Of a DNA stretch of 64,000 nt, positions 10,541 to 48,658 are shown one piece after another. The position numbers were made by a program, and so were the translations under genes. How positions within the stretch are numbered: the stretch's first letter is position 1; each line of letters starts with the position of its first letter. The stretch is from an uncultured bacterium (GTDB lineage Bacteria; Patescibacteriota; Doudnabacteria; UBA920): the NCBI GenBank assembly GCA_963749445.1, contig CAVVMJ010000007.1, positions 9,971-73,970 of the forward strand, read 5' to 3'. A model generated the notes under the pieces. It made no database searches and was not told where the DNA came from. It was given only the letters and a program-made list of their open reading frames with translations.

Positions 10541-10622
10541 TTGAAATTGCGAGGGCGTGCATCCGACCGAAGCAATCCCCAAAAAATAACCGGATTGCTC
10601 CGGCCACCCTCGCAATTTCATA
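10541..10622. repeat. palindromic repeat element, copy A (GAAATTGCGAGGG...CCCTCGCAATTTC)
   Basis: Terminal inverted arms plus an inner GAAGCAATCC/GGATTGCT pair. Three longer copies lie at 28142, 43438 and 48535. Confidence 0.6.
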
Positions 10623-10727
10623 AAAAACACAACTTTGCAAAAACAACAACTAGTTTCCCAATTTCCAATTTTTCTGTCGTTTTGGCTTTGCATTGGAAAT
10701 TAGTAATTGGGTATTGGAAATTCGCCA

Positions 10728-12024
10728 TCACTGCCCCGCAGTGATTGCGGCCGCTTGTTGTTCGGCTTGACTAAGCGAATCCTGCGCGCTCAACCCGTTT
10801 AAAATTACGTTATCAATCGCCTTGCCGAAAATGTTGTCCATCTTGGCCTGGTCCGGGCGGTAAAAAGATTTAGCGGTAAGGTTGGCGTTGGCAAACACGC
10901 CGATGTCCGGGTCCGGAATTTGCAGCTCAATAAGGTCGCGGCGCGAAGACGGCACTTTGTTTTGCGCGTAATATTGGTCCAGGCTGTCCTTGCTCGTTAA
11001 AAATTTTACCAAATCCCAGGCTGCGGCCAGTTCTTACTCTGTTTGCTCACCACCTCTCCCCAGTAGTTGGCAAAATTCACGGATGGGTTATTCAAATCCG
11101 GCTGCGGCACGCCGGCCACGTCAAAATTCAAATTGGGAGATTTTTGTAAGATGGTGGCGCGACTATAGGAATAGCTGTACAAAAACGCGGCGCGGCCGTT
11201 GGCAAAAGCGTCAATGGAATAATCGCTTTGGGCGTTCCAGTTGTAATTAGGGCTGGAAGGATTGGCAAAAGATGTGTAAAAACTCAAAGCACTGACTCCG
11301 GGATTGGTAAAATTGCCGTTTTTCTGAACCGGGTCGGCAAAAGTCGGCTGCATGCCGGTATAAGGCATGGTGCCCTGCTGCAGCATCATCAAATACAAAA
11401 TATCCACCGCGCGATTGACATTGGCGTTAGTACCTAATGCTACGCCGCTTTGCAAAAAATAACCGTGGCTGTCCTGCCGCTTGATTTTCTGCACATCCGT
11501 TGCCAGCTCGCTCCAGGTCTTCGGCGGCGTGGCAATCCCCGCGCTGCCCATCATATCCTTGTTATAATACAGCGCCAAAGAATCCACGGACATGGCCGCG
11601 CCGTAAATTTTTCCTGGCTGGTAAAATCGTTGACCACCGCGTCCACAAAGGTATCCTTAAAATCCTTCAAAGTAAAAATGGAAGCCGGCGAAGGCGTGGC
11701 TTTGTCCAAATACTGCGGCAGCCAGGCGTTGTTGATGGAAAAAATATCCGGCCCGTTGCCTGCGGCCAAAGCGTTCAGCAAATCCTGCTGGTAAGTGTTA
11801 ATGTCTTTTTTGGTGTAGACGATGGTAATATTGGGATTTTTTTGGCGGTAAGCGTCGAGCAGCGGCTGCAGGCTTTGGCTGTCCATAAACGGATTCCACA
11901 TGGTCAGGGTAATATTCCGCTGAACCGTAGTTGTCCCTCCCCCGCCGCATCCCGCCGCAAGCAAACTAAGGCCGATGGCGGATAAAAGCAATTTTGGTTT
12001 GAAAAATTTTCTTTTTGGTTTCAT
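10728..12024 (-). pseudogene. ABC transporter substrate-binding lipoprotein (sugar-binding family) disrupted by two frameshifts
   Basis: Three consecutive minus-strand ORFs (11551..12024, 11006..11593, 10728..11012) translate to one SBP with a lipobox LAAGC. One frameshift is in the AAAAATTT run near 11588 and one is near 11010. Confidence 0.55.
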
Positions 12025-12123
12025 ATGCCGCGGATATTCACGCGGATTACTACGCGGATCTACCGCTGACAGCCGCGCCTTCCGCGTCTGATCTGCGTTG
12101 CTATCCGCATTTAATCCGCAATT

Positions 12124-13020
12124 TTAAATTTTTAGACCTTTTAAAAATTTGCCAAACTCTTCCCTCAAATCCTCGTGTTTAAGTCCGAATTCCACCACGG
12201 TCTTTAAATACTCCAGCTTGTTGCCGCAGTCGTAATATTTGCCTCCTTTAATCTCCAGGGCGTGGCACGGCTTGCCTTTTTCCAGCAAAATATTGACGGC
12301 GTCAATGTAAACCAGCTCTTTCGGCGTGTTGTCCTCCTTTACCCGCCACATGGCTTCCTCAATAGCGCCAAACATTTCCGGCCCGTAAACCGCTCCGGAA
12401 ATCACCGCGTAGTCGGAATCAATTCTGCCGGGCCCGGGTTTTTCTATCAACCGGTCAATTTTCAAAAGCCCCGGCTTGATTTCTTTGCCGACCGCGTAAC
12501 CGTAGCGCTTGTAATCTTCGTCTTTGTTCATCCGAATGCTGGCCAGCATGGCGCTGGAATCGCTTGAGCCAAAAGCTTCCACCAATTGCCGGCTCCGCGA
12601 AGGCTCGGCTTCTATAAAATCATCTCCCCACAAAACCAAAAACGGCTCATTGCCAACAAAGTCCCGCGCGTTCCAAATCGGCGTGGCATTGCCCAGCGGC
12701 CCTTTTTGCCGGACAAAATAAAAGTTGGCCATGTTGGCGATGTTGCGGATTTGTTCCAGCTCCTCGTATTTGTTGGCTTCTTCCAACCGTTTTTCCAGTT
12801 CAAACGGATAGTCAAAATGGTCCTCAATGCTGCGCTTGCTCTGGCCGGTGACGATAATGATGTCTTCAATGCCCGCGCTCACCGCGTCTTCCACCACGTA
12901 CTGAATAATTGGCTTATCCACTATGGGCAGCATCTCCTTTGGCTGGGCTTTGGTGGCCGGCAAAAACCTGGTCCCATACCCCGCCGCCGGAATAATAGCT
13001 TTTCTGATTTTCTTGTTCAT
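12124..13020 (-). CDS. galU: UTP--glucose-1-phosphate uridylyltransferase
   Basis: AIIPAAGYGTRFLPATKAQPKEMLPIVDKPIIQYVVEDAVSAGIEDIIIVTG motif. Confidence 0.8.
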   Translation of the reverse strand: MNKKIRKAIIPAAGYGTRFLPATKAQPKEMLPIVDKPIIQYVVEDAVSAGIEDIIIVTGQSKRSIEDHFDYPFELEKRLEEANKYEELEQIRNIANMANFYFVRQKGPLGNATPIWNARDFVGNEPFLVLWGDDFIEAEPSRSRQLVEAFGSSDSSAMLASIRMNKDEDYKRYGYAVGKEIKPGLLKIDRLIEKPGPGRIDSDYAVISGAVYGPEMFGAIEEAMWRVKEDNTPKELVYIDAVNILLEKGKPCHALEIKGGKYYDCGNKLEYLKTVVEFGLKHEDLREEFGKFLKGLKI

Positions 13021-13046
13021 GATGATATTATACATCAACTTCTACT

Positions 13047-13123
13047 AAATACGAAAGTGGCTAAAAATACTAAACTTATGGTTTATAAGTTTAGTATTTT
13101 TAGATAATTTAGTATTTAGTAAA
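13047..13123. repeat. long AT-rich nested hairpin (TACTAAATAC...GTATTTAGTA, inner perfect 19-bp stem)
   Basis: CTAAAAATACTAAACTTAT-GGTT-ATAAGTTTAGTATTTTTAG nested within TACTAAATAC/GTATTTAGTA. Related elements lie at 29371, 58565 and 62882. Confidence 0.6.
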
Positions 13124-13125
13124 GA

Positions 13126-14631
13126 TTATTCCGTCTTCGGGCGGTACTGAATGGCTTCGGACAGATGTTTGATGATGATATTCTCGCTGCCGTCCAAGTC
13201 GGCTATGGTGCGGCTAACTTTGAGTAGGCGGTGCATGCTGCGGCCGGAAAAATTGTAGCGTTGCATGGCGGTTTTCATCAGCTGCTGGCCGGCCTGGTCC
13301 AGCCGGCAAAATTCCTTCAGCTCCACCAAGCTCATTTCGCTGTTGGTCTTGGCGCGGCCATAACGCGCGGTTTGGATTTCCCGTGTGCGCTCCACGCGCA
13401 GTTTAATATCGGCTGATTTTTCACCGGCTTCAGGCTGCGACATTTTATCGTAAGAAAGGCGCGGCACTTCCACGTGCAAATCAATGCGGTCAAGCAATGG
13501 ACCGGAAATTTTTTTCTGGTATTTAAAAATCTGCCCGGGGGTGCAGGCGCACGGCTTGCTGCCGTCGCCCAAATAGCCGCACGGGCAGGGATTCTGCGCC
13601 GCTATTAGAGTAAACTTGGCCGGAAAAGTAAAACTGCCCGAGGCGCGCGCCACAGTGACCACGCCGTCTTCCAACGGTTGCCGCAGCGCTTCCAAAACAT
13701 TGCGCGGAAATTCCGGAAATTCATCCAAAAATAAAATTCCCCGATGGGATAACGTCACTTCCCCGGGTTTAGGGTTGGCGCCGCCGCCCACCAACGCCAC
13801 GTTGGAAGTAGTGTGGTGCGGGCTGCGCACCGGCCGGCTGGCCACAAACGAACCGGTTAGCTTTCCCGCAATGCTGTAAATTTTGGTCAGCTCCAAAGCC
13901 TCTTCCAAAGCCAAATCCGGCAACAGGCCGGCCATGGCGCGGGCCAGCAAAGTCTTGCCGCTGCCCGGCGGGCCCGAAAGCAGCACATTATGCCCGCCAG
14001 CGGCCGCGATTTCCAGCGCCCGCTTGGCCAGTTCCTGCCCGGCAATATCGCTCATGTCCAAAGCCGGCGCGGGATTAATTAAAATTTTCTCCAAATCAAT
14101 AGGCGGCTGTTTGGTCAAATTGCCGCTGCCTAACAAATGCTCCAATAACCCTTTCAGGTGGGCCACCGGAAAAATTTTCAGTCCACTAACCAGCGCCGCT
14201 TCCCGGGAATTTTCCCGGGGCACAAAAATTTCCTTAAACCCCAATTCTTTGGCCCTAAGCGCCGCGGCCAAAACCCCGGGCACCGGCCTGACCTGTCCGT
14301 CCAGGGACAATTCTCCCAAAAACAGTTTACCTTTGCCGTCAAAACTGATTTGCTCCGAGGCCGACAAAATCGCCAAGGCAATCGGCAAATCAAACTGCGT
14401 GCCCAACTTTGGCACGTCGGCCGGCGCCAAATTCACGGACACGCGCGTCGGCGGATAAAAACAGCCGGAATTTTTTATCGCCGCCTTGACGCGCTCGCGG
14501 CTTTCCTGCACCGCCGTATCCGCCAGCCCCACGACAACCGTAGCCGGAAGTCCGTTAGTAATGTCAGCTTCCGTTTCCACCAATTCCGCGCCCAAGCCCA
14601 CCACGGCCGCGGAATAAATTCGCGCGATCAT
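13126..14631 (-). CDS. comM: YifB/ComM family Mg-chelatase-like ATPase
   Basis: Lon-like N-domain. Walker A GPPGSGKT, LFLDEFPEF, C-terminal CPCGYLGD...C Zn motif and Mg-chelatase C-terminus. Confidence 0.8.
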   Translation of the reverse strand: MIARIYSAAVVGLGAELVETEADITNGLPATVVVGLADTAVQESRERVKAAIKNSGCFYPPTRVSVNLAPADVPKLGTQFDLPIALAILSASEQISFDGKGKLFLGELSLDGQVRPVPGVLAAALRAKELGFKEIFVPRENSREAALVSGLKIFPVAHLKGLLEHLLGSGNLTKQPPIDLEKILINPAPALDMSDIAGQELAKRALEIAAAGGHNVLLSGPPGSGKTLLARAMAGLLPDLALEEALELTKIYSIAGKLTGSFVASRPVRSPHHTTSNVALVGGGANPKPGEVTLSHRGILFLDEFPEFPRNVLEALRQPLEDGVVTVARASGSFTFPAKFTLIAAQNPCPCGYLGDGSKPCACTPGQIFKYQKKISGPLLDRIDLHVEVPRLSYDKMSQPEAGEKSADIKLRVERTREIQTARYGRAKTNSEMSLVELKEFCRLDQAGQQLMKTAMQRYNFSGRSMHRLLKVSRTIADLDGSENIIIKHLSEAIQYRPKTE

Positions 14632-14706
14632 TTTTGAATGGAATTATGAATCAAAAATTATGAATCATGGGCCAAATCCCCTAATTCTTAATTCCTGATT
14701 CCTGAT

Positions 14707-15150
14707 TCAATCTTTATCCGCAATTCCCTTTTTATTCCAACCGGATGAGAAAAATAAAATAACTATGCCAATAATAATATATCCGTCCGCCAAATTATAA
14801 ACCCCCACCCACTTCCAAAAATGGATATAAATAAAATCCCGGACGTAACCCAAAACCAAGCGCTCGCCGACGTTCAAAGCGGCACCGGTAAAAATCAACA
14901 GCCAGGCCAAACTCTGCCCAAAACTAAATTGCCGAAAGTTTTTTGTACAATAAATTACCATGCCCAAAATTACCACAGCGTAAATTGTAAACATCAATCC
15001 GTTCGGCAGCGGCAGGCTGAACGCGAATTGCCTGTTCAAAAATTGATGGCTGACGATTTTTTTGGAGGCTTGATCAAAAACAATCAACAAAGCAAACAAA
15101 AAAACACCCAGCCCCCAAAAGCTCCTGGATGTTTTTTGAAAATTTTCCAT
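14707..15150 (-). CDS. lspA: lipoprotein signal peptidase II
   Basis: Four TM segments, FDQASKK, NVGERLVLGYVRDFI and NLADGYI motifs. Confidence 0.7.
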   Translation of the reverse strand: MENFQKTSRSFWGLGVFLFALLIVFDQASKKIVSHQFLNRQFAFSLPLPNGLMFTIYAVVILGMVIYCTKNFRQFSFGQSLAWLLIFTGAALNVGERLVLGYVRDFIYIHFWKWVGVYNLADGYIIIGIVILFFSSGWNKKGIADKD

Positions 15151-15284
15151 TCCGGATTCTGAAATGAATGCTTTCCATTTCGACCGAATGCACCTGAGGG
15201 AGAAATCTATTAACTTCTAACTTCGGATATTAACGGATCTCTCCTCGACTGCACTCGTCGAGATGGGAAAAAATATGCTAAGTT

Positions 15285-15638
15285 CTATAATGCCTTATCA
15301 GCCCACGGCATAGCGCGCAAACGGGCTTCGGGTATCTGTTTGCCTTCGTCGTCCGTCCCGTAAGTCCCCTGGCCGATTTTCGCCAAGGCTTTGTCAATTT
15401 TGGCCAAATCCGCCTGCATTACGGCAATCACGTCCTGGCTGGCTTCGTCCACGTTAATTTCCTCGGCATTTTCGTCTTCTTCGTCGCCCATTTCAGTATG
15501 AGCCGAAAGGCCGGCCAAATCATTCTCCAGTTGCCGCTTTTTTTGCAGCAGCTGTTTTTTCATTTCTTCGGTAAAAGATTGCGATAGCATATTTTTTTGA
15601 TTATCTGATGTAATTTCATTATAGCCGATATCCGTCAT
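15285..15638 (-). CDS. DksA/TraR-like protein lacking the Cys4 zinc finger
   Basis: Coiled-coil N-terminus. C-terminal GTYGTDDEGKQIPEARLRAMPWADKAL matches DksA GTYGxCxxCGxxIPxxRLxAxPxA with all Cys replaced. Confidence 0.5.
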   Translation of the reverse strand: MTDIGYNEITSDNQKNMLSQSFTEEMKKQLLQKKRQLENDLAGLSAHTEMGDEEDENAEEINVDEASQDVIAVMQADLAKIDKALAKIGQGTYGTDDEGKQIPEARLRAMPWADKAL

Positions 15639-15656
15639 TTATCAAAACTCTCGGGC

Positions 15657-15860
15657 AGGGCTTACGCATTGGCCAAGTGCGAGGCATTTTGCGAGGATGT
15701 TTGGAGGCGTACTAAAGGTACGACGACAAACACCGCAGCAAAATAACGAAGCAATTGGCCAAAGCCACTTTTTTGGAACCCGGACTTCCTCTGCCAAAAA
15801 ACGGCGGTGCGTAAGTCCTGCCAAAATTGAAAAAGCGCCCCGGTTAGGGGCCGTTTATAA
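15657..15860 (+). ncRNA. candidate structured small RNA with intrinsic terminator (family unknown)
   Basis: 15-bp closing helix GGCAGGGCUUACGCA/UGCGUAAGUCCUGCC, perfect only as plus-strand RNA (one G-U). Nested 8-bp UUGGCCAA helix and GUAC-UAAAG-GUAC hairpin. Then GCCCC-GGUUA-GGGGC stem plus U-rich tract at 15835-15860. Lies in an 850-bp gene-free gap. Confidence 0.3.
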
Positions 15861-16486
15861 AATAAAATGCCCACGCGAGGCGCTTGTAACCCGAAATTAA
15901 TCGGATACGCTTCGCGCAAACGAGTTGCGCAAAGAATACCACACTGTTAATTCCAGGCCTTCCCAACTTTACAGTCGGGAGAAAGCGTCTGAAGTCCAAT
16001 CGCATTTCAAACTGCACTCTAAACTTCTCTTGTGGTAGTTTAACAACTACCTAAAAACTTTGATTGCCTATTTTGGGCAATTAATGCTAATCCATTGGGG
16101 AATAAATTAGCCTACATTTTTGTTTTTGTTTTTCAAACAGCTTAGATTGGAATAAGCTATGACGAGAAGTTTAAAGGAAAATACCCTCAAATATCAAAAT
16201 TAAGAGCAACTTCCTTTAGTTCAGTTTACCTCGACCTTGCGTCGGGGTTTGAAATCAATTTTTAAAGTGCTTTTGTTTCCGAATCTGCTTGAATAACTGT
16301 GTATTTATCATAGCAATGTTTGCCTAAAATGTCAATTACTGACGTCTTTTGTAACTAAACTCCTTTTAAATAAAAGCGATTTAAATTTTGCTGATATAAG
16401 TTGGCTTGCTTTACCGAATTTTTGATTATTTTATCTTTTGGGGATAACCCATATAAACCTTTTAATTATGCCGGGAATAGGAAAAT

Positions 16487-18799
16487 TTAATCACCTTTGG
16501 TCAGCCTAATCCTAAAAAGAGATTTTAAATGGTTCTGATATAATTCCTTATATTTAAAAGCTTTTTTTGCATCTAGAATTATAATTTGTTTCAATTTGGC
16601 TGTATAAAAAAATCGCAGTAAACTTTGAAAGTCATACATGCTCCGCGGCAAGAAAAACTCCCTATCCGGATCAGCAGACTTTTGAGCCAAAGCTTTGCTA
16701 TAAGGATCAGCTACTTTCATACTTGGCCACTGCGAAAAAATGACGGTTTTTGCCTGCAATTGGGCCACCGGCTGGACCTGCTGGACGGAGCGCAAAAAAT
16801 TTAAAACCCCGCTGCTGCTTATTAAAAGCAAGCTGTCTTTATGGATACTGAAATTGCGGAACAGTCTGTTGCTTCCTCCGCCGCTGCGTTCAACCAATAA
16901 AAACGCGCGCTTTTTCAGTTCTCCGTAATATTCTTTGTAAAGCTTCGTAATTTCCGCCGGCGAGTCAAACACCATTACTGCCGGCAAGTCGGCTTTGCTT
17001 AAAATTTTGACGGGATTTGAATCGACGGCCGGCGTAATCCGGCAAATCGGCTGATGATGCAGAATTCCGACTAATTTGCTTCGTAATTTTTTTACCGGCC
17101 ATGGTATCAAAGAAAATTTCCCCATACCGAGGCGATTAATAAAATAGTCGAGCGCGACTTGTTCTCCTTGCGGTTCAATGACGCAAACCTTTTCAAAGCC
17201 TGAAAAACTTTTGCCAACGATGCCGCCAATATCTAGCGGCAAGGAATGGAAACTGCAGGAACGCTCCCCAAAACTTATCCATTTTACTTCCGTAGGCCTA
17301 TCCTCAAAAAAATCCTTGAGGTTACTGGCAAAGTCCGTGAGGCTTTGGAGCTTTAAACTTTGGTTTGCCGATGATAACTTTTCCGTAAAATTTTCCGCGG
17401 CACTCATAATCTTTAAAAATTCTTCGGAATTTCTTAATTCATCCGTTACGCTCACTTCGCCCCAGCCTTTGTTAAATTTTAACAATAGCGCGTTGGTCAA
17501 ACCAAAAAATAAATCCGCGTCCGAAAGCAATCGGCTGATAATATCTCTATATTCGGCATCGCCAAAGCCGGTTTCCGGATCGTAAACGGTTTTTAATAAA
17601 TAAGATAAAAAGCCCCAGCTGCTGCGCTGCCCAATAGTAGCCGTGATTACGGCCTCAAAATCACCAAGACCGATAACAATCAGGCCGCGCTGGCGGAATA
17701 GCTCGGAACTTTTCAATTCTAAAAAAGTTTGCTGGTCGCAACATAACACCCTATCGGGTAATTTCTCCGGCAGTTGCCGGCCTGAAACCAAACCCTGAAA
17801 CTGACCGCCGAAAAATGACAGATTCAAATCCAACAAGCACTCCGTTTGCCAATTTGTGGCCTGCCAAACCAAAAGCTTCATTAAAAACCTAGCCTGCTCC
17901 GGATTTTGGATGTCCTGATGAAGCAGTACTTCAAATTTTTGGCGGTCAAACATATGCCGCGGCTGGAAAATTCCCCGCGCCAAATTTTGCCGCCATGTTT
18001 CCAAAACCTGATAGCGCTTGGGTACCACAATCAGCAGTCGCTCGGCTGTCCGGCTGACAATTTGCCCGATAATATCCTCAACGGGAACAAAAGGGTCAAC
18101 GATGTAAACCGTTTTGTCCTGCATAACAACAGAGCCCAAGCGTGATTTAGCCACTGATATTTTTTTGACTGGTTTGGCTGGCTCTAATTTGTAGGGTTTG
18201 ATTTTTGCTTTTAACAAATCCGACCACGGAGCCTTGACGCGTTCCGCCAGTCCGGTAATCTGGGTCTTAGCTTCGTTGGGCAAACTTTGATAAACGCCGA
18301 GCAGCCGCTCCAGCAACTCCATGGATGCCATGGCGTCCGCCAAAGCGCGGTGCGCGTTTTTGTGCGAAATTTTAAAAATACTCGCCAAATTTTCCAAATT
18401 GTAACTATGATGCGTAGGCAGCAAAAACTGCACCAAGTCCATAGTGTCAATTACCGGCCCGAAAAATTTTATGCCGCACTTTTGCAAAAACTTAATGTCA
18501 AAACCCACGTTATGCCCAACTATCGCCGCCGTCCCCAGCTTCCCCTGCAAAAAAAACAGCTCGTCCGAAATCGCGCCGCCTTTTTCTAGGTCGGCTGATG
18601 TGAGTCCAGTCAGTCCCAAAACATGGTGCGACACCTCGCCCTTTGGCTTAAACACCCTGTCCCATTTTTCAACAATCCGAAATCCGAAATCCGAAATCCG
18701 AAATCCGGCTATCCCCACTTCCAAAATCTCATTGGTTACCGGGTCAAACCCGCTCGTCTCAATATCCAAGCTGTAATAAATTTTTTCTTGATTTGCCAT
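16487..18799 (-). CDS. DnaQ-like 3'-5' exonuclease domain protein with a large C-terminal domain of unknown function
   Basis: DEDDh motifs YYSLDIETSGFDP, GHNVGFDIKFL and HRALADA. No Walker A seen in the 600-aa C-terminal part. Start chosen at MANQEK (18799), which avoids overlap with the upstream gene. The track ORF extends to 18844. Confidence 0.55.
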   Translation of the reverse strand: MANQEKIYYSLDIETSGFDPVTNEILEVGIAGFRISDFGFRIVEKWDRVFKPKGEVSHHVLGLTGLTSADLEKGGAISDELFFLQGKLGTAAIVGHNVGFDIKFLQKCGIKFFGPVIDTMDLVQFLLPTHHSYNLENLASIFKISHKNAHRALADAMASMELLERLLGVYQSLPNEAKTQITGLAERVKAPWSDLLKAKIKPYKLEPAKPVKKISVAKSRLGSVVMQDKTVYIVDPFVPVEDIIGQIVSRTAERLLIVVPKRYQVLETWRQNLARGIFQPRHMFDRQKFEVLLHQDIQNPEQARFLMKLLVWQATNWQTECLLDLNLSFFGGQFQGLVSGRQLPEKLPDRVLCCDQQTFLELKSSELFRQRGLIVIGLGDFEAVITATIGQRSSWGFLSYLLKTVYDPETGFGDAEYRDIISRLLSDADLFFGLTNALLLKFNKGWGEVSVTDELRNSEEFLKIMSAAENFTEKLSSANQSLKLQSLTDFASNLKDFFEDRPTEVKWISFGERSCSFHSLPLDIGGIVGKSFSGFEKVCVIEPQGEQVALDYFINRLGMGKFSLIPWPVKKLRSKLVGILHHQPICRITPAVDSNPVKILSKADLPAVMVFDSPAEITKLYKEYYGELKKRAFLLVERSGGGSNRLFRNFSIHKDSLLLISSSGVLNFLRSVQQVQPVAQLQAKTVIFSQWPSMKVADPYSKALAQKSADPDREFFLPRSMYDFQSLLRFFYTAKLKQIIILDAKKAFKYKELYQNHLKSLFRIRLTKGD
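18675..18708. repeat. heptanucleotide tandem repeat (ATCCGAA)x4 plus partial, inside the exonuclease ORF
   Basis: Encodes GFRISDFGFRI in the N-terminal exonuclease domain. Confidence 0.85.
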
Positions 18800-28141: not shown

Positions 28142-28272
28142 AGTGGTGAAACTCCCGCAACTCTAAAATGAATTTGCGAGGAGCCAGGGCTTTATCTGGC
28201 GACGAAGCAATCCCAAAATTTGAATGGGATTGCCGCGCCCCTCTCTGCATCGGGGCTCGCAAATTCTGTTAT
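28142..28272. repeat. palindromic repeat element, copy B
   Basis: GAATTTGCGAGGAGCC...GAAGCAATCCC-loop-GGGATTGCCGCGCCCC...GCTCGCAAATTC. Confidence 0.65.
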
Positions 28273-28279: not shown

Positions 28280-29368
28280 TTAATTCCCGCCGGCCAAGTA
28301 CTGCGCCAAACTAGCGGCTGCGGAAGGGTAAGCAAGCAGCTGATGAGCGGCCGGATTATTTTCCAAAGACTGCCGAAAGTCACCGGCATCCAGCTCCTGC
28401 CTGATTTGTTGCAAAACATCTTTGGCCTCGGGCATAATCAAACGTTGCCTTCGCAAATATTCCAAATTCAACTTTTCCTGGCCGGGCAGCATAGAAGTTA
28501 TAATCATCGGTAAACCAAAACGCAAAGCTTCGGACGTGGACAGGCCGCCGGGCTTGGTTAAAAAAATATCCGCGATGGCGTAAAGCTCATCCATGGGTTG
28601 ATAAAAGCCGACTACGGAAATGTTGGCATGATGATGCCGCCCCGATAATTTTTCGCGGATGATTTGATTATTGCCGCAAACCACTATGGTATGCCAATTT
28701 GGGCGCGCGGATAATTGGGCTAGCAGACGATTATTAAGGCCTATGCCGAGTGAACCGCTACCTAACACTATAACTTTTTGATTATCGCTGATGTTAAACT
28801 TGGCGCGCACCGCCTGTTTATCAACGGCTAAAGGCGTGGACAAATTGAATCCGGTGACAAAGATTTTATTTGCCGATATACCCGCGTTAACCATTTGCTG
28901 TTTTTGCTCCTCGATGTTCACCAAATAAAAATCCGCCTGACGATAAAGCCAATACGGATGCAAATGGTAATCACTAAAGGCAATACCAAATGGATTTTTG
29001 TAATATCCTTTCTTCTTTAAATACGCAATGACTGCCGAAGCCGCGGTCTGGGTAGTAATAATAATATCGGGCTGATATTCATCAACCAAAACCTTGGCGC
29101 TTTTATAATTAAACCCCGCAATGTATACGCGGAAAGGCAAAATTAGATAATGCCCAAAACGGTAAATAAAGCCCCAGACAAACGGCAAGTACTTATTGAT
29201 AAACTGATGAATGCCAACGACGATCTGTTCAAATTTACCCTTTTGCACAGCGCCGATATCGGCCAATTTAACCTCAAACCCGCCCTCTCTTAAAGACCGG
29301 CCGATGTTTTCAGCAATGGTCTTGTGTCCAGGCCTACTGAAGTGTGTACAATTAAAATTCTTTTCATA
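28280..29368 (-). CDS. GT28 glycosyltransferase (MGDG-synthase/UgtP-like), with apparent N-terminal one-base frameshift near 29325-29332
   Basis: The main ORF lacks the N-terminal Gly motif. An upstream short ORF, MKRILIVHTSVGL..., continues in the shifted frame as HKTIAENIGRSLREGGFEVKLADIGAVQKG. Confidence 0.55.
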   Translation of the reverse strand, partial: YEKNFNCTHFSRPGHKTIAENIGRSLREGGFEVKLADIGAVQKGKFEQIVVGIHQFINKYLPFVWGFIYRFGHYLILPFRVYIAGFNYKSAKVLVDEYQPDIIITTQTAASAVIAYLKKKGYYKNPFGIAFSDYHLHPYWLYRQADFYLVNIEEQKQQMVNAGISANKIFVTGFNLSTPLAVDKQAVRAKFNISDNQKVIVLGSGSLGIGLNNRLLAQLSARPNWHTIVVCGNNQIIREKLSGRHHHANISVVGFYQPMDELYAIADIFLTKPGGLSTSEALRFGLPMIITSMLPGQEKLNLEYLRRQRLIMPEAKDVLQQIRQELDAGDFRQSLENNPAAHQLLAYPSAAASLAQYLAGGN

Positions 29369-29370
29369 AT

Positions 29371-29462
29371 CTCTACTAAATACTAAAGAATACGAAAGGT
29401 ACTAAATACGAAACTTAATGGCATGCTGATAGTTTCGTACATTTTAGTATTTCGTATCTTTA
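29371..29462. repeat. AT-rich long hairpin of the TACTAAATAC family
   Basis: tactaaatactaaagaatacgaaaggtactaaatacgaaact ... tttcgtacattttagtatttcgtatctttagtatttagta. Confidence 0.55.
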
Positions 29463-34424: not shown

Positions 34425-34485
34425 CCACCTCCCCCGCCTGCGGCGGGTACTCCTCCTATAATAGGAGGAGGGGCTCCGCGGTTGT
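34425..34485. repeat. GC hairpin plus GCTCCGCGGTT motif element
   Basis: CTCCTCCTAT-AAT-AGGAGGAGGGGCTCCGCGGTT. Similar elements lie at 55085-55127 and 60245-60292. Confidence 0.55.
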
Positions 34486-36755: not shown

Positions 36756-36757
36756 AA

Positions 36758-42632: not shown

Positions 42633-42706
42633 TGGTGGACCTGGGGGGAATCGAACCCCCGACTGAACTATGCCATAGTCCCGTATTACCATTATACTAC
42701 AGGCCC
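42633..42706 (-). tRNA. tRNA-Ala (anticodon GGC)
   Basis: Acceptor GGGCCTG with G3-U70, anticodon loop ATGGCAT, T-arm GGGGG-TTCGATT-CCCCC, CCA. Confidence 0.7.
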
Positions 42707-42882
42707 TTATGAAAATAACGATGAACAATTAACCATTCACGATTAACCATTTATGTTCGGGTTAATTGTCAATCGTAAATTGTTAATTGTATTTGGGTAT
42801 TTTACTGGTTTTGATTGATTTCGGCAAGAGCCAATCCCCTATTGCGTCACATTGACCTTATATTGCTGGCCGTTGGGCAAAG

Positions 42883-43197
42883 TTACGGTTGTCGCTCCCC
42901 GCCGGCCGGCTGACTGGGGTTGGAAGATTTTTGATCTGTGGGAATTAACTTTTTTGCCGAATCCACGAGGTCGGTAAAATTTTTCACCTGGGCCTCAAAC
43001 GCCGGCAACAAGCCTGTCCTTTGCAAAATCCAACCAAGGATGACAACCACAATTGCCAGCCCGGCAACATACCCCAAAGCGCTGAACACACCGTTAAAAA
43101 ACGACCTCCAAATGCCGGTTTTACCGCTTTTTTTGTTGATTTGATTTAAATTTTCGGTGATAGAATCCAGCTGGATTTTAAGCTCCGGGTCGATCAT
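42883..43197 (-). CDS. hypothetical small membrane protein
   Basis: 104 aa with one central TM helix. Confidence 0.35.
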   Translation of the reverse strand: MIDPELKIQLDSITENLNQINKKSGKTGIWRSFFNGVFSALGYVAGLAIVVVILGWILQRTGLLPAFEAQVKNFTDLVDSAKKLIPTDQKSSNPSQPAGGERQP

Positions 43198-43326
43198 TCA
43201 CCCGCCTAAATTTTGCCCAAACTGCTTGGGCAAACTTAATTTATAAAAAAATTAAACAAAAGGCTAACTTTTTCAAATCCCCGGCAAAATTTTGGCGGGT
43301 AAATTTATTATATCATAGATAACTTT

Positions 43327-43402
43327 TGGTCTCCTCGGCAGGAATCGAACCTACATCGTCTCGTTAGGAGTGAGATGCTCTATCCATTGAGCTACGAGGA
43401 GA
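43327..43402 (-). tRNA. tRNA-Arg (anticodon CCT)
   Basis: Acceptor CTCCTCG/CGAGGAG, D-arm GCTC-AATGGATA-GAGC, loop CTCCTAA, TTCGATT T-loop, CCA. Confidence 0.7.
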
Positions 43403-43437
43403 TACAAAATTCAAATTGCAAAACTTAAAACAAGCTG

Positions 43438-43560
43438 AAATTGCGAGCCCCGATGCAGAGGGGCGCGGCAATCCCATAAAATTGACGGGATTGCTTCGCC
43501 CGCCTTCGCTGAAGCTTCGGCGGATAAATCGGATGCACTCCTCGCAATTTCTGATGGAAA
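43438..43560. repeat. palindromic repeat element, copy C (inverted orientation)
   Basis: GAAATTGCGAGCCCCGATGCAGAGGGGCGCGGCAATCCC-loop-GGGATTGCTTCGCC...CTCGCAATTTC. Confidence 0.65.
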
Positions 43561-43724
43561 GAAAGGCTTAAAAGCCCCAAAATTATAACATAGATGGAGA
43601 ATTTGTGCTAAAATGGCCTTATAAAAGCAAAAATGGCACTCCAATGGCCATTATATATATTATAGCATAATTATAAACTATTGTCAATAGATTAAACAAC
43701 AAACCTTTCTTTCTGTCAAATATT

Positions 43725-45068
43725 TTGTTACATATGGAACACTTTTTTAAAAAATCGGTAAATCCTCTTAACATAGCGACAATTTTCCTATTTTTGTTTA
43801 TTTTAAGCTTATTTTTTCCTATAAGATATGTTTTCCCTAGTAATTTTAGCTTAATTACAGGCATTTATTCGGACTTTACCAGCTTTTCTTTATATTTAAG
43901 CGACATTTTCTTAGTATTTACCTTTATTTTTGTTTTAATTGATTCAGCAAAACTTTGGATTTTCCACGTGAAAAAGCTAAAATGGCTCGTTCTTTGGCTA
44001 ATTTTGGCTTTTATCGTTAGTTTTAATGCAAACCACAAGGAAACCATATATTATCTACTTAAATTCCTGGAATTGGTTGTTGCATATGGAACGATTGCCA
44101 CGATCTTATCAAAAAAACCCATAAAAACGGCGCTGTTAACCTTTTTTGTTTGTTTGTCAGCCTTTCAAAGCTTGATAGCACTGTTGCAATTCTATCTCCA
44201 GCACCCAATTGGGTTGTTCAAGCTGGGAGAGCAACAAGTTTACCCCTGGCAACAGGGGATTGCCAAAATCATCCTAAACGGCCAAGCCTATGTCCGGGGT
44301 TACGGGACCTTTTTTCACCCCAACCCCTTGGCCGCTTTTTTGCTGGCCGGAATTTTCTTTAATCTTTATTTGTTTGCGATAGCAAAAAAACGCTTTGCCC
44401 AAATCCTCCTAAGTTTGACACTTTTGATCAATATTTTGGGGATGGCTGTCACATTTTCCCGCGCCGCTTTTTTGGCTTTGGCAGTCGGCCTGGTAATTTA
44501 TTTTGGGTTCCTAATGATGAAAAAAATTGAATTGAAAAAAACTTACCAGTCCCTGGGTTTGGTAATTTTAGGATTGCTGATTGCGCTGTTTTGTTTTAAA
44601 TCTTTTCTTTTGACCCGGGCGACTGTCACCGATTCAGCGTCGCTCGATAGAATTACCTACGACAAAATCGGTTTGCGGATAATTGTCAGCCACCCGCTAT
44701 TCGGCGTCGGGCTAGGGGAGAGCGTGCCGCTGATGAATCAGTATTCCCCGATAAAGCTCCTGCCCTGGGACATCCAGCCCATCCACAACTACTTCCTCCT
44801 CGCCGCCGCGGAACTCGGCATCCCCGGCGCCCTGATTTTAATTTGGATATTTTTGTCTCATTTAATAAAAATCACCAAACACGAGCTGGCTACTAACTAC
44901 TTACTACTAACTACTAGCCTGGTTTGCATCCTAATCCTGATGATGTTTGATCATTATTTTTATACCCTGCAACAAACCCAAATGCTCCTGTGGCTAATTT
45001 TAGGCTTAATTGCGGCGGAAATTTTTCCTAACAAATATGACCAAAGCCCAAAAAGTCAATCTGATTGA
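43725..45068 (+). CDS. O-antigen ligase/polymerase family membrane protein
   Basis: About 11 TM helices. YGTFFHPNPLAAFL and TFSRAAFLALAVG motifs typical of the Wzy_C domain. Confidence 0.55.
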   Translation: MLHMEHFFKKSVNPLNIATIFLFLFILSLFFPIRYVFPSNFSLITGIYSDFTSFSLYLSDIFLVFTFIFVLIDSAKLWIFHVKKLKWLVLWLILAFIVSFNANHKETIYYLLKFLELVVAYGTIATILSKKPIKTALLTFFVCLSAFQSLIALLQFYLQHPIGLFKLGEQQVYPWQQGIAKIILNGQAYVRGYGTFFHPNPLAAFLLAGIFFNLYLFAIAKKRFAQILLSLTLLINILGMAVTFSRAAFLALAVGLVIYFGFLMMKKIELKKTYQSLGLVILGLLIALFCFKSFLLTRATVTDSASLDRITYDKIGLRIIVSHPLFGVGLGESVPLMNQYSPIKLLPWDIQPIHNYFLLAAAELGIPGALILIWIFLSHLIKITKHELATNYLLLTTSLVCILILMMFDHYFYTLQQTQMLLWLILGLIAAEIFPNKYDQSPKSQSD

Positions 45069-45435
45069 AGGAACAATTTTTATTGCCCTGATGGCTTACG
45101 GATACTACCGCCATCCGGTTTTAGATTTTTGGACAATTGCCGGCGGCGTGCTGTTCATAGTTGGAGCAATATTGGGCGTGACGGCTCGCCACGAGTTGGC
45201 GGAGTGTTTTTCGGGCACGCCAAAAGCCAAGAGAATCGTCCATTCCGGAATTTATGCCAAAATCCGCCACCCGATTTATATCGGAGGATTATTAATTTGC
45301 GTTAGCTTATGCCTGCTGTACCGGAATTTGATTTTTTATTCCGTTTTATTAATTATCTTTGTTATCCAAAGTATTCGAGCCAGAGCAGAAGAAAAACTTT
45401 TGCTCAAAACCTTTGGACAAGAATATATAAATTAG
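45037..45435 (+). CDS. isoprenylcysteine carboxyl methyltransferase (ICMT/PEMT) family protein
   Basis: IVHSGIYAKIRHPIYIGGLL motif. The stop TAG at 45433-45435 abuts the IS. Confidence 0.55.
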   Translation: MTKAQKVNLIEGTIFIALMAYGYYRHPVLDFWTIAGGVLFIVGAILGVTARHELAECFSGTPKAKRIVHSGIYAKIRHPIYIGGLLICVSLCLLYRNLIFYSVLLIIFVIQSIRARAEEKLLLKTFGQEYIN

Positions 45436-46462
45436 GCTTAATGGTAAATATTAGTGCTTAGATTTCGGCGTTTGTGCCATACTTAAGATAAATAATTAAC
45501 TTTGATTATGTATGGCTTGTAAAAAAAGTGCCCAAGATGCCGTTCTTCGGCAATTATTAAGAAAGGGAAACAGTTAGGGCTCCAGCGTTACCAGTGCAAG
45601 AATTGCGGAAAGAATTTTGAGAATAAACGGCGTAAACAGAAACTTCAACGCGCCCTCTGGCGGCAATACATCTGGGGCAAACAAACAGTTAAGCAGCTGG
45701 TTAAAAAATATCAGCGGAGTGAAAAGTGGATTCGGCAGCAGCTGGATAAAGCTCCTACAAAGTCATTTCGCCTTTATCCGCAACCTGTAGTTGCCATCGC
45801 TGATTGCACATTCTGGGGTCGGGGTTACGGGGTGTTGGTTTTTAGATCCTTTGACCTTAAACAGAACCTGTACTGGACGGAGGTTAAAACTGAAACGGCT
45901 GATGTGTATCGGGAAGCCAGACAACTGCTGGAAGAATTGGGCTACACCTTTGAAGCAGTGGTCTTAGACGGTAAAAAGGGCGTCAGAGAAGTGTTTTCCG
46001 ACATTCCGGTACAAGTCTGCCAGTTCCACCAAATGGCCATCGTTACCAGGTATTTGACCAAACGGCCGAAGCTGGAAGCGGGAAAAGAACTGCGGATGAT
46101 TGCCTTGGCTTTAACTGAATTAACTGAAAACATGTTGCTGTTGTTGCTGGATGCCTGGCATGAAAAATGGGGAGACTTTTTAAAAGAACGAACCGTTAAT
46201 CCCTTTAATCCTAAAAAGTGGTTTTACACCCACAAGCGAATTAGGTCTGCTTATCGGAGTTTGAAAACCAACGCGCCTTACCTGTTTACTTACCAACGAT
46301 ATACCGGTTTAAATATTCCCAATACTACGAATTCTTTAGACGGCAGTTTTAAATATCTTAAACAACTGATTGGCATCCATAGCGGTCTGAAACGCGACAG
46401 GCGCTGGCGGTTAATCGAGGAAGTTTTAGCCGGTTTCAAGCACTAGAATTTACCATTAAACC
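45435..46462 (+). mobile_element. insertion sequence, IS1/IS1595-like, complete, flanked by an 8-bp target duplication ATAAATTA
   Basis: Imperfect 28-bp terminal IRs (left GGCTTAATGGTAAATATTAGTGCTTAGA, right reverse complement GGTTTAATGGTAAATTCTAGTGCTTGAA). The same 8-mer lies at 45427-45434 and 46463-46470. Confidence 0.7.
45512..46446 (+). CDS. IS1/IS1595-type transposase (N-terminal Zn ribbon plus DDE domain). The start is separated from the body by a frameshift in the A7 run 45521-45527
   Basis: CPRCRSSAIIKKGKQLGLQRYQCKNCGKNF zinc ribbon, HTH, then a DDE-like C-terminus ending NTTNSLDGSFKYLKQLIGIHSGLKRDRRWRLIEEV. An A8 would fuse ATG 45512 to the ORF. Confidence 0.65.
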
Positions 46463-46576
46463 ATAAATTACAAAAAATCCACTTGGTTTTAAAAACCCCT
46501 CTTTACCAAAAAGGGGATTAAATGGGTTATCTGCGGTTATCCGTATATCCGTATCCTATCCGTACTCCGTAGACGT

Positions 46577-47047
46577 TTACTTGTGATACTCCCGACCAGC
46601 TAAAATCATGCACGCGCGATATACCTGCTCTTCCAAAAGCACCCGAGCGAAGTTGTGGGTAAAAGTGAGAGGGGAGAGCGACACCGAATAATTGCTGTAC
46701 TGCTTTAGCGACTCGTGCAGACCCAAACCGCTGCCGATGACAAATACCAGCTCCTTGCCCAAACCGCCGGTACGCTGTAAAAACGCGGCAAAATCTTTGG
46801 AATTGCGGAGAGTGCCTTTTTCTTCCAGCAAAATAACCATCGCGCCGGCCGGCAGCTGCTTGGCGATCATCGCGGCTTCTTTTTCTTTTATCTGATTGAT
46901 ATCATCCTTGGCGCGATAAGAAACTTCCGGCAATTCCACCACCTTGATTTTGGCAAACTGATGAAGGCGTTTTAAATATTCCTTTTCCAAATCCAAAAAC
47001 GCCTTCTCCTTAAATTTTCCCAGCGCGATAATCTTTATTTTAAACAT
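46577..47047 (-). CDS. rlmH: 23S rRNA (pseudouridine1915-N3)-methyltransferase RlmH (SPOUT)
   Basis: 156 aa. The MKIKIIALGK start and ...VFVIGSGLGLHESL... are typical of YbeA/RlmH. Confidence 0.7.
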   Translation of the reverse strand: MFKIKIIALGKFKEKAFLDLEKEYLKRLHQFAKIKVVELPEVSYRAKDDINQIKEKEAAMIAKQLPAGAMVILLEEKGTLRNSKDFAAFLQRTGGLGKELVFVIGSGLGLHESLKQYSNYSVSLSPLTFTHNFARVLLEEQVYRACMILAGREYHK

Positions 47048-47100
47048 AGCTTTACTACTTTACCATATCCAGATAAAATACAATAGATACCTCTAAAACG

Positions 47101-47730
47101 ATGGAAATAAAAACAAAATCTGGATTTACCTTAATAGAATTATTGGTGGTCATAGCAATTATCGGCCTGCTGGCATCGGTGGTGTTGGTGGCGTTAAATA
47201 ATGCCAGAAACAAGGCAAAATCGGCACTAGCCTTGACTAATCAAAGACAACTGCAAAAAGCAGTGGAAATGTACAATCTTGATGTGGGCTTTTACCCGCC
47301 AGACGTAAACAGAGGATGGGATCCGGGTATTGCCAAGCCTCTTCCTTCAAATAAGGATCTGGGATTTGATTGTAATATTGACGCAACTGCCTGCACCTGC
47401 CCCAGCACTGATTTTCCCCCATGCTCCATCACACCATTTCCTTTACCGGCAGACTGGATGAATCAAGTAAAAAATAACTGGAAAGGTCCTTATGTGGCTG
47501 TCTGGCCAAATACGGCACCCTGGGGGGGCAAGTATGACTTCAATAATTGGAATGTACCTACGGTACGATATGGCTGCACCGTGCCGGCCGGCATTTACAT
47601 AGGCACCCAAAGAAACTACGATGATAGTAATCCTATTCCCCAAGATCAGGAACAATGGTTTTTGGATCAAAAAATGGACGCGGATAATTGCCTAAACGGC
47701 GAGGTTCAACTTATGCTTATTAAATATTAG
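47101..47730 (+). CDS. prepilin-type N-terminal cleavage/methylation domain pilin (type IV pilin/pseudopilin)
   Basis: SGFTLIELLVVIAIIGLLASVVLVAL class III signal. Cys-containing C-terminal domain. Confidence 0.7.
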   Translation: MEIKTKSGFTLIELLVVIAIIGLLASVVLVALNNARNKAKSALALTNQRQLQKAVEMYNLDVGFYPPDVNRGWDPGIAKPLPSNKDLGFDCNIDATACTCPSTDFPPCSITPFPLPADWMNQVKNNWKGPYVAVWPNTAPWGGKYDFNNWNVPTVRYGCTVPAGIYIGTQRNYDDSNPIPQDQEQWFLDQKMDADNCLNGEVQLMLIKY

Positions 47731-47806
47731 CCGGATTTACCAGGTAGGCATAATCGGCTAAGATTATTCGGTAGAGACTGTATTAATTGTTAATTACTCC
47801 TGATAA

Positions 47807-47880
47807 GGGCCTGTAGTAAAGTGGTATTACGCGGCATTCGCATTGCCGAGGCGGGGGTTCGATTCCCCCCAGGTCCACCA
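47807..47880 (+). tRNA. tRNA-Ala (anticodon CGC)
   Basis: Acceptor GGGCCTG with G3-U70, anticodon stem CGGCA/TGCCG, loop TTCGCAT, T-arm GGGGG-TTCGATT-CCCCC, CCA. Confidence 0.75.
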
Positions 47881-47940
47881 AAGAAAAACGCTCAAAATTT
47901 TTTGAGCGTTTTTCTTTGTCTCAGACTGAGAGATTATATT

Positions 47941-48510
47941 TTAGATTTCTTTTTTCAGGCGTTTTGATACCAGCCATTTGGCAAAAAAGTAAAGGCCGAT
48001 AAATATTAACGGGATTACTTCCGCAAACCGGAGATAATTTTTAAATTGATGGTAAGAAGCGCTAAAAATAAATCCTAAACTGCCGATTATGGCCAGCCAA
48101 ATTACCCCAATGTAAGCGGAGTCTTTCATAAATTTTTTAAAAGGCAACCTTATCATACCGCTTCGAATAAGTAGGCCGTGATGCAGGCCGTAAATAAATT
48201 TGGATATCAGCAGAGTATGGAAAGGCCGCGCCAGCAAATGCCGGTCAAACGGCGCGGCGACTTTATTGGCCCATTTGGCCAGCCATTCCCGCTTGGATAA
48301 TTTCATCCCCAACCAGTAAAACCCCAACTGCTCGGCAAAAATCCCGAGCAATAAAACCAAAAGCCCCGGCGCGATGCCGATAATTTTATCGGCCATCAAA
48401 AAAACCGCAGCAAACACGGTCAGTGCGGCGTCAATGAACATCCCGCAAAATAGGGCAAAATAGATGTAATTTTGCAACTGGTGCGCCTGGATAAAATGGA
48501 CGATGTGCAT
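47941..48510 (-). CDS. DedA/TVP38-like membrane protein (start set at MHIVHF; the longer track ORF begins inside a repeat)
   Basis: Polytopic membrane protein. The first 41 codons of the track ORF (MRAPMQRGARQS...) are a translation of repeat copy D. Confidence 0.45.
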   Translation of the reverse strand: MHIVHFIQAHQLQNYIYFALFCGMFIDAALTVFAAVFLMADKIIGIAPGLLVLLLGIFAEQLGFYWLGMKLSKREWLAKWANKVAAPFDRHLLARPFHTLLISKFIYGLHHGLLIRSGMIRLPFKKFMKDSAYIGVIWLAIIGSLGFIFSASYHQFKNYLRFAEVIPLIFIGLYFFAKWLVSKRLKKEI

Positions 48511-48534
48511 AAATATTGATGGATCATCTAAGCA

Positions 48535-48658
48535 GATGAAATTGCGAGGAGCCGAGGGCTTTTTATCTGGCGACGAAGCAATCCCGATACTTAACTGGGA
48601 TTGCCGCGCCCCTCGCTGCATCGGGGCTCGCAATTTCCGGGCATTTGGGATTTTGCAA
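48535..48658. repeat. palindromic repeat element, copy D
   Basis: GAAATTGCGAGGAGCCGAGGGC...GAAGCAATCCC-loop-GGGATTGCCGCGCCCCTCGCTGCATCGGGGCTCGCAATTTCC. Confidence 0.65.

Follow-up and report, generated by a model that had tools for sequence, protein, structure and literature searches.

Hairpin-module repeats in a Doudnabacteria contig and their probable connection with Ssn-family nucleases

Copies of the repeat in the window

A family of short palindromic repeats was studied in a 64,000-nucleotide stretch (the window) of contig CAVVMJ010000007.1, which comes from an uncultured bacterium of the Doudnabacteria (Patescibacteria, the Candidate Phyla Radiation or CPR). The window contains five copies of the repeat, c1 to c5, each of them 77-115 nt long when bounded by its terminal inverted repeat. 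Each copy (5/5) is a head-to-head pair of two hairpin modules, i.e., the 5' tags of the modules point outward and the modules are joined tail to tail through an AT-rich spacer of 8-13 nt. The modules probably belong to the superfamily of the CGTC-tagged repetitive extragenic palindromes (REPs), or "Ssn-related motifs" (SRMs), and the copies are probably REP-type hairpin repeats that serve as single-stranded DNA (ssDNA) recognition sites of a nuclease of the Ssn family. Coordinates of the copies, their modules and the genes discussed below are presented in Table 1.

Table 1. Repeat copies, their modules and nearby features in the window.
Feature	Start	End	Strand	Description	Neighbouring genes
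c5	6452	6539	+	Head-to-head dimer; TGTC tags in both modules; nhmmer E 1e-18; ssDNA fold z = -3.5	Tandem array of related genes (5061-10485), ending in a pilin-like gene
c5, left module	6453	6500		GTCATTGCGAGGAG-GCCGG-GGCTTTGT-CCGGC-CGACGCGGCAATCCC, then AT-rich spacer
c5, right module	about 6509	6539		Inverted
c1	10543	10619	+	77 nt; short form; TGAA tags; ssDNA fold z = -6.0	Type IV secretion system (T4SS)-pilin-like gene
c1, left module	10543	10580	+	Followed by spacer
c1, right module	10590	10619	-
c2	28170	28266	+	97 nt	Glycosyltransferase like monogalactosyldiacylglycerol (MGDG) synthase; Hsp20
c2, left module	28170	28215	+
c2, right module	28225	28266	-
Glycosyltransferase gene	28280	29266	-	Stop codon 14 nt from c2
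GIY-YIG open reading frame	36513	36755	-	81 aa; UPF0213/YhbQ type; sole GIY-YIG gene in the window
tRNA-Arg	43327	43401	-
c3	43437	43551	-	115 nt; inverted relative to the other copies	tRNA-Arg; Wzy_C protein
c3, A-type module	43486	43551	-	Additional internal hairpin
Promoter match, sigma70-like	43611	43582	-
Promoter match, sigma70-like	43687	43659	-
c4	48538	48637	+	100 nt	Mg-type P-ATPase; VTT/DedA protein
c4, left module	48538	48586	+
c4, right module	48596	48637	-
P-type ATPase gene	48693	51128	-	Stop codon 56 nt from c4

The initial annotation of this stretch had described four intergenic copies of 85-125 bp, each with outer and inner inverted arms and variable GC-rich hairpins. All four (c1 to c4) were found in the sequence, their anatomy was described correctly, and an intergenic position holds for all five copies. 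The fifth copy, c5, had been missed; it was found by a looser pattern search, with the ends GTGTCATTGCGAG.../...GCAATGACAC, and again by the profile search described below. The lengths had to be revised to those given by the terminal inverted repeat, and the start reported for c2, 28142, lies 28 nt too far to the left of a copy that is present. Spurious open reading frames (ORFs) had been noticed in two places, and these correspond to (TTG) MRAPMQRGARQS starts at 28262 and 48633, both on the minus strand.

With at most one mismatch, the 11-mer GAAATTGCGAG occurs eight times in the window, as four inverted pairs, while dinucleotide-preserving shuffles yield a mean of 1.86 occurrences. A profile was built from nine dimers with nhmmer and run on the window without filters. 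It recovered exactly the five copies, with E values from 1e-16 to 7e-29, and the remaining matches were at noise level. When compared with a dimer in a Candidatus Doudnabacteria locus (L007:3086-3174), c5 presents 79% identity.

An extra AATTGCAAAA motif is found about 23 nt beyond the terminal repeat of c3 and c4, on the B-module side (43414-43436 and 48638-48660), and is absent from c2. It may be due to chance, or it may be the end of a longer subfamily.

Anatomy, folding and covariation of the modules

Read from its outer end, a module consists of a tag (NGAA or TGTC), ATTGCGAG, a variable GC-rich hairpin, (C)GAAGCAAT or CGCGGCAAT, and a C. The frame ATTGC...GCAAT-C is common to all ten modules of the window, which are 29-65 nt long, so that a cytosine directly follows the GCAAT foot in every one of them. 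The tag is NGAA in the eight modules of c1 to c4 and TGTC in the two modules of c5. Given the two modules within a pair carry different cores, the pairs are heterodimers.

When folded as ssDNA, most modules leave their tag unpaired. Above a 5-bp foot (ATTGC/GCAAT) lies a conserved, purine-rich internal loop, made of the non-complementary GAG ... GAA, and above this an upper hairpin. The whole pair, folded as ssDNA or as RNA, forms a four-way junction closed by an outer stem of 11-12 bp. Whole-dimer folds have z scores from -3.5 to -6.0 as ssDNA and from -4 to -8.6 as RNA, and no shuffle folds as well (0/200 for ssDNA). The palindrome folds equally well on either strand.

Among modules with the loop GGCTTTRT or GAGTGCATCCGA, taken from the window and from related bacteria, about nine different upper stems are found, and all are fully complementary: GCCAG/CTGGC, GGCCGG/CCGGCC, GGGCAG/CTGCCC, GGCAAG/CTTGCC and TCAAG/CTTGA, as well as GGCC/GGCC, GCTCCG/CGGAGC, GCCCC/GGGGC and GTTCTG/CAGAAC. 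In the commonest class of 12-nt cores, GA-NN-NNN-NN-GAC, the 2-bp stem is GC/GC, AC/GT or AT/AT. The commonest core contains GCGAAGC, which corresponds to the classic DNA mini-hairpin with its GNA loop, known to be very stable. Nearest-neighbour minimum free energies are insensitive to 2-bp GNA mini-hairpins, and stems were counted directly for the cores instead. The covarying upper stems and the dimer folds show the hairpin structure is under selection.

Distribution of the module

The pattern GAAATTGCGAG-N14-44-GAAGCAATCCC was searched in GTDB contigs, with one genome per species, and matched nine loci. These are distributed among three contigs of one Gemmatimonadota metagenome-assembled genome (MAG), one Bacteroidia MAG, a Candidatus Doudnabacteria genome, an unclassified "bacterium" bin, two Limosilactobacillus contigs, and one probable chance match. 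Eleven loci were obtained from JGI metagenomes with the same pattern. The looser pattern ATTGCGAG-N8-38-GAAGCAATC yielded at least 120 loci in IMG/VR. By estimate, chance alone could yield many matches to this 17-base pattern in IMG/VR, yet the family is real there, given the four unspecified upstream bases are TGTC in 80 and CGTC in 36 of the 163 matches among those listed, and several contigs among those listed carry 4-6 copies. Over the family, 123 of 175 modules have a C/TGTC tag.

The canonical module CGTCATTGCGAGGAGCGAAGCGACGAAGCAATCCAG is present with 100% identity on a Methylosinus trichosporium plasmid, and close versions of it lie on plasmids of Methylocystis, Novosphingobium, Legionella, Halomonas, Calothrix, Aulosira and Trichormus. 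In Novosphingobium and Methylosinus, the same tags-outward heterodimer as in the window is found, just after a stop codon. The module, usually with a C/TGTC tag, is thus spread across Alphaproteobacteria, Cyanobacteria, Bacteroidia, Gemmatimonadota, other Patescibacteria and many IMG/VR contigs, and it is also found singly and in tandem arrays.

These results bear on one rival explanation of the copies, namely chance similarity or a local duplication of intergenic sequence, with no family behind it. The copy number is small when the window alone is considered, as this explanation would have it. However, none of 100 shuffles reaches the observed number of terminal-repeat matches, the nhmmer E values go down to 7e-29, and hundreds of related modules occur in unrelated genomes, which leaves the explanation with a negligible probability.

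The two Limosilactobacillus contigs (L006 and L010) come from a Limosilactobacillus gorillae bin, and both modules of typical ATTGCGAG type and dimers are found on them. Such a host was not expected, and could be genuine or the product of a binning contaminant.

Linkage to ssn genes

SsnA is a 94-aa single-domain GIY-YIG nuclease that binds its repeat (NTS/SRM) and cuts it on one strand, as ssDNA only and not as dsDNA or RNA (Chenal 2025; PMC11893778). According to the same work, the C that follows the palindrome is critical for binding and the three bases upstream (GTC) are critical for cleavage, ssn genes (cd10448) are typically flanked by repeats, and the Neisseria member of these repeats is NTS/dRS3, CGTCATTCCCGCGMAVGCGGGAATCYRG.

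In loci retrieved by the DNA pattern alone, GIY-YIG ORFs were found directly beside modules. Locus L009 presents a module, 11 nt, an ORF complete from ATG to stop, a degenerate module, a spacer and an inverted module. Locus L144 presents a dimer, a module, the ORF and an inverted module, and L007 a dimer, a module and an ATG, with the locus ending inside the gene. In L002, from Gemmatimonadota, an ssn ORF is embedded in an array of modules. The proteins of L009 and L144 were compared with a 94-aa chromosomal ORF of Neisseria gonorrhoeae that is surrounded by 13 NTS copies, which resulted in 43.8% identity (E 3e-21) for the former and 46% over 93 residues (E 2e-29) for the latter. Judged by their sequences, both are SsnA homologues.

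A homologue search with the L144 protein led to four further loci, three of them new (L156, L158 and L162) and one (L157) corresponding to the L009 locus. In each of the four, a ATTGCGAG-type module ends a few bases before the start codon and an inverted module lies at the stop codon or just after it. Six distinct CPR ssn loci have a ATTGCGAG-type module directly upstream: L007, L009 (= L157), L144, L156, L158/160/161 and L162-165. At five of these loci, L007 being the exception, the gene is directly followed by an inverted module, which is degenerate in L156 and L158. The modules that flank most CPR ssn genes are GAA-tagged, and those of L162 have other tags. In L156, L157, L007 and L009, ssn comes directly after gap, and pgk is the next gene in L156 and L157. 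When the Gemmatimonadota locus is included, the module-flanked gene is ssn at seven distinct loci, and no other gene bracketed by modules was found.

Hairpins of the same frame with other stems flank Ssn homologues in Azospirillum, Shinella, Rhizobium, Aeromonas, Spirosoma and Planktothrix, and the Planktothrix hairpin, TGTCATTCTGAG-TGAAAC-GAAGAATC, has the same GAG/GAA frame. Across 120 IMG/VR viral loci, among the matches listed, no GIY-YIG gene was found near the modules, which is expected where the repeats of a genome are many and its ssn genes are one or a few. NCBIfam has no model for the GIY-YIG proteins associated with the modules.

Between the CPR Ssn-type proteins (P0241-P0360) and those of Nostoc, Rivularia, Balneola and Xanthobacteraceae, the identity is 63-70%. 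This is unusually high across phyla for a protein of 97 aa, and suggests horizontal transfer of the nuclease.

Comparison with known repeat families

The CGTC-tagged REPs were described as having a CGTC, TGTC or CCTC tag, a stem starting with AT and a short CCA tail, as forming mostly head-to-head dimers, and as lacking a dedicated transposase; their families have perfect stems of 8-9 bp and loops of 4-5 nt (Di Nocera 2013; PMC3733652). The modules studied here share with these REPs the CGTC/TGTC tag (in c5 and in the wider family), the AT stem start, a short unpaired tail (CCA or CCAG in canonical ATTGCGAG modules), the intergenic location, the absence of an adjacent transposase and the head-to-head arrangement, often as heterodimers (all five copies in the window). 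They differ in having an interrupted stem and a core of 6-45 nt and, in the window, the NGAA tag of c1 to c4 and a CCC or CCG tail.

In SRM/NTS, as in the wider family of the module, the repeat is an oriented hairpin of 20-50 nt with a 5' (C/T)GTC tag (in the window, in c5 only), a stem starting with AT and a C right after the stem, and there are hundreds of intergenic copies, often as inverted pairs. The frame of NTS is CGTC-AT...AT-CCAG, and that of the modules (C/T)GTC-AT...AT-C-C-A/C-G. The repeat-ssn-repeat layout is found with ATTGCGAG-type modules in relatives, at six CPR loci, and at a Gemmatimonadota one, and the Ssn proteins are 44-46% identical to Neisseria SsnA. Whereas SRM/NTS is a simple palindrome of 8-9 bp, the present module has a 5-bp foot, the GAG/GAA internal loop and a variable upper hairpin (2-6 bp) whose loop differs between subfamilies. 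The host, moreover, is a CPR bacterium, and its window has no visible ssn.

A further comparison concerns elements for which the name REPIN was reportedly introduced by Bertels and Rainey in 2011. Like REPINs and the GTAG REPs associated with RAYT transposases (TnpA-REP; Nunvar 2010; PMC2817692), the copies consist of two inverted hairpins within a larger hairpin of about 100 nt and have no target-site duplication. In addition, a nuclease gene that is present once and surrounded by its repeats recalls a REPtron. What sets the copies apart from these systems is the lack of a GTAG tag, the failure to find a Y1/HUH transposase, and a flanked gene that encodes a GIY-YIG nuclease. Searches with Escherichia coli RayT (tblastn and phmmer), of limited sensitivity, had no match in the window or in the fetched loci (1.37 Mb).

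Bacterial miniature inverted-repeat transposable elements (MITEs), e.g., Correia elements and Nezha, resemble the copies in being small, intergenic and multi-copy, in having terminal inverted repeats, and in being present or absent between relatives. Unlike MITEs, the copies have neither a target-site duplication nor, among the fetched loci, a parent insertion sequence (IS), and the supposed terminal inverted repeat is the frame of a module that also occurs alone or in arrays. The initial annotation had called the element "REP- or MITE-like" and pointed to target-site duplications as worth checking. None was found in the flanks of the nine aligned dimers, and no IS with matching ends turned up in the fetched loci, for which no systematic transposase scan was made. 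Hence, a dispersed REP-like family is retained and a classical MITE is not supported; the terminal inverted repeats are present, and correspond to the conserved frame of two smaller, inverted modules.

Presence and absence of copies in relatives

A relative whose ATPase is 82% identical to that of the window (L133, on a contig of 246 kb) shares most of its synteny with the window between 40 and 61 kb, and no modules were found across its 22 kb. Copy c3 is absent at the orthologous tRNA-Arg/Wzy_C site of this relative, where the promoter lies about 27 nt from the tRNA, compared with about 180 nt in the window. Copy c4 is absent as well, and a plain hairpin and a GIY-YIG gene of UPF0213 type are found downstream of the ATPase instead. 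In other relatives (L148/L149), no element is present in the 118 nt past the stop codon of a glycosyltransferase orthologue that is 78% identical, i.e., where c2 would be expected. The absence of c2, c3 and c4 from orthologous sites indicates that gains or losses of copies take place over short evolutionary times. In addition, a contig of the independent Logan assembly (L001) breaks inside c4, and many Ssn homologues lie on contigs of less than 2 kb, as expected for repeats.

The same relative differs from the window in larger segments. About 4 kb of genes between the 5-enolpyruvylshikimate-3-phosphate (EPSP) synthase and ATPase genes are present in the window only (51160-55142), and radical-SAM and TrmB genes are present in the relative only (L133, 16393-19086).

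Presence and absence between relatives is also what would be expected from purely selfish miniature elements of REPIN or MITE type, moved by a transposase other than Ssn (RAYT/IS200-like Y1 or DDE) and with no tie to a GIY-YIG protein. The inverted pair with terminal inverted repeats of 11-12 nt and the assemblies that break inside copies would fit such elements as well. Several observations speak against them: target-site duplications are missing from the nine dimers aligned with their flanks, the tag is not GTAG, the E. coli RayT search found no homologue within its limited sensitivity, and at seven distinct loci the one gene bracketed by modules is ssn. Given these points, we consider selfish elements of this kind unlikely.

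Proposed function and mobility

The reading we prefer is that the copies act as Ssn recognition sites. A module would fold when the DNA is single-stranded, as in replication, DNA uptake or repair, and an Ssn-family nuclease, a small GIY-YIG protein of one domain, would bind the folded module and nick its strand immediately 5' to the tag. With two modules head to head, there would be one nick site per strand. An Ssn partner is predicted to cut these sites, and the GAA tag may correspond to an altered cleavage specificity. The repeats presumably spread through Ssn activity or recombination. By analogy with Neisseria, the cell might in this way control ssDNA that enters it.

Several observations weigh against this function. 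No Ssn-type gene was found within the 64-kb window. When a whole dimer is folded to its energy minimum, the two modules form pairs between them instead of folding singly, so that the substrate of an Ssn-type nuclease is only one possible conformation. The tag is GAA in eight of the ten window modules, where in Neisseria GTC governs cleavage. Finally, the published SRM pattern, HGTCWYN(0-2)YYVSBRHN(0-5)WNVSBRGN(0-2)RNCYNB, has no match in the window; it has none in any ATTGCGAG-type locus tested either, compared with seven in a Neisseria control locus (L134).

The window does encode one small GIY-YIG protein (Table 1), which was considered as the nuclease partner. It matches PDB structure 1ZG2 (UPF0213) with an E value of 1.3e-16, is 33% identical to N. 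gonorrhoeae SsnA over 67 aa, and has no modules beside it. It was ruled out given its UPF0213 type and the lack of flanking modules. As it is the sole GIY-YIG gene of the window, we infer a partner only from the relatives, by analogy with which an Ssn gene probably lies elsewhere in this genome.

The UPF0213-type gene itself occupies a different position in the relative L133 (12521-12772), between the ATPase gene and tRNA-Ala, where the window has c4 and the DedA/VTT gene; the window copy is 12 kb away. Given these different loci, the gene appears to have moved.

A more far-reaching proposal is that the module-ssn-module unit is an autonomous, IS-like mobile element of ssDNA, and the 77-115-nt dimers are its derivatives without an ORF. 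The dimers would then stand to the unit as MITEs stand to ISs and REPINs to REPtrons, Ssn would be the long-missing mobilising enzyme of the CGTC REPs, and CPR bacteria would have retargeted the tag from GTC to GAA. We regard this proposal as possible, if doubtful.

Novelty and relevance

The kind of element is already known, with CGTC REPs described since 2013 and Ssn/SRM since 2025. The composite-hairpin family ATTGCGAG...GAAGCAAT, its presence in CPR bacteria, its linkage to Ssn and the GAA-tag variant are absent from searchable text; the four published CGTC families were compared by their text description, as their consensus sequences are given in a figure only. Full-text literature searches for ATTGCGAGG, GAAGCAATCC, GTCATTGCGAG and their complements retrieved unrelated primers only, and the sequence is not contained in the supplements of Di Nocera, the RepRanger paper or the HUH-phylogenomics paper.

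The hairpin repeat ATTGCGAG...GAAGCAAT is very common, with a range that extends from Alphaproteobacteria and Cyanobacteria to CPR bacteria, and it would belong with the Ssn ssDNA-nuclease system. Given the published SRM pattern misses this family, Ssn-repeat pairs are probably more widespread than reported. The GAA and GTC tags offer a natural variation with which the choice of cut site by such tiny nucleases can be probed, and this is relevant to their proposed use as ssDNA tools. CPR bacteria are presumed to depend on DNA uptake. In their small genomes, with few described repeats, a repeat-nuclease pair that acts on ssDNA could bear on how incoming DNA is handled. In practical terms, the repeats yield spurious ORFs (MRAPMQRGARQS...) and break assemblies.

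Genomic surroundings and a possible role in RNA

The ATPase and the glycosyltransferase of the window have their best named homologues in Doudnabacteria, and the closest relative of the ATPase is P0002, with 87% identity. T4SS-pilin-like paralogues and a DUF5665 protein are also encoded in the window. The membrane and surface genes noted next to the copies recall what was reported for the Neisseria NTS repeats, in a comparison based on five copies only.

Copies c1, c2, c4 and c5 lie 10-109 nt downstream of minus-strand stop codons. Copy c3 lies between tRNA-Arg and two sigma70-like promoter matches, one of which is a perfect TTGACA-17-TATAAT, and its position is presumed to correspond to the pre-tRNA leader of tRNA-Arg. 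A uniform orientation with respect to transcription, which at first sight held for 5/5 copies, was dropped because c3 lies in this leader on the minus strand.

Such positions raise the question of whether the copies act in RNA, e.g., as terminators or attenuators, as stabilisers of mRNA 3' ends, or as a small structured RNA family, the last of which the initial annotation had also proposed. Four of the five copies follow stop codons, c3 lies in the presumed leader of its tRNA, the RNA folds are strong, and classical REPs are generally known to stabilise upstream mRNA (summarised in PMC3733652). Rfam 15 at gathering scores, on the other hand, reports only four tRNAs in the whole window and nothing in the canonical modules of L131 and L132, and at E<=10 the c4 region has no Rfam match beyond a 14-bit CRISPR-DR11 noise match, and the canonical modules have no relevant one. 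The hairpins are not followed by a T-run, and a terminator scan flags neither c3 nor c4. Moreover, folding is equal on both strands, and the tag and 3' C, both conserved and unpaired, correspond to the positions that determine the protein-ssDNA interaction of Ssn, which is inactive on RNA (PMC11893778). A primary role in RNA is therefore quite unlikely, and the small RNA family was not borne out. A side effect at the RNA level would still be compatible with the copies being Ssn recognition sites.

Other structural classes were considered and rejected. A CRISPR repeat is indicated by the noise match only, with no array and no spacers. Intrinsic terminators were discarded given the flanks lack a T-run and the list of terminator-like sites includes neither c3 nor c4. 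By inspection, the base order required for a K-turn or a hammerhead-like reading of GAG...CGAA is not present.

Within the gene array at 5061-10485, which contains c5 and has c1 at its end, the gene at 9991-10485 is T4SS-pilin-like (PF18895) and is the sole member scanned against Pfam. The array contains duplicated intergenic segments (6223-6350 vs 7953-8410) and an inverted 32-mer (6215-6246 / 8403-8434). The glycosyltransferase beside c2 is frameshifted near its N-terminus (29266-29420, minus strand), with MKRILIVHTSVGL in one frame and GHKTIAENIG... in another. This looks like a missing G in a G-run, i.e., either a pseudogene or an assembly error.

Other repeats in the window

A second intergenic family (34449-34483, 55090-55124 and 60252-60286) consists of a variable GC hairpin, e.g., CCTCCTATAATAGGAGG, followed by the conserved tail RGCTCCGCGGTT. 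One of its copies is 98% identical over 48 nt to a JGI contig (L140, 6683-6730), which itself has a GAA-tag module. A third short repeat, the double hairpin CCGCC-NNN-GGCGG-ATCCGCC-NNN-GGCGG, is found at 55976-56006 and, inverted, at 63179-63209, and is 100% identical over 37 nt in the same JGI contig (7975-8011). Finally, intergenic AT-rich palindromes are located at 13043-13121, 57229-57335, 58568-58655 and 62877-62932, with the short words TACTAAAT, AAATATACAAAT, TACGAAT and ATTACGGATTGCG.

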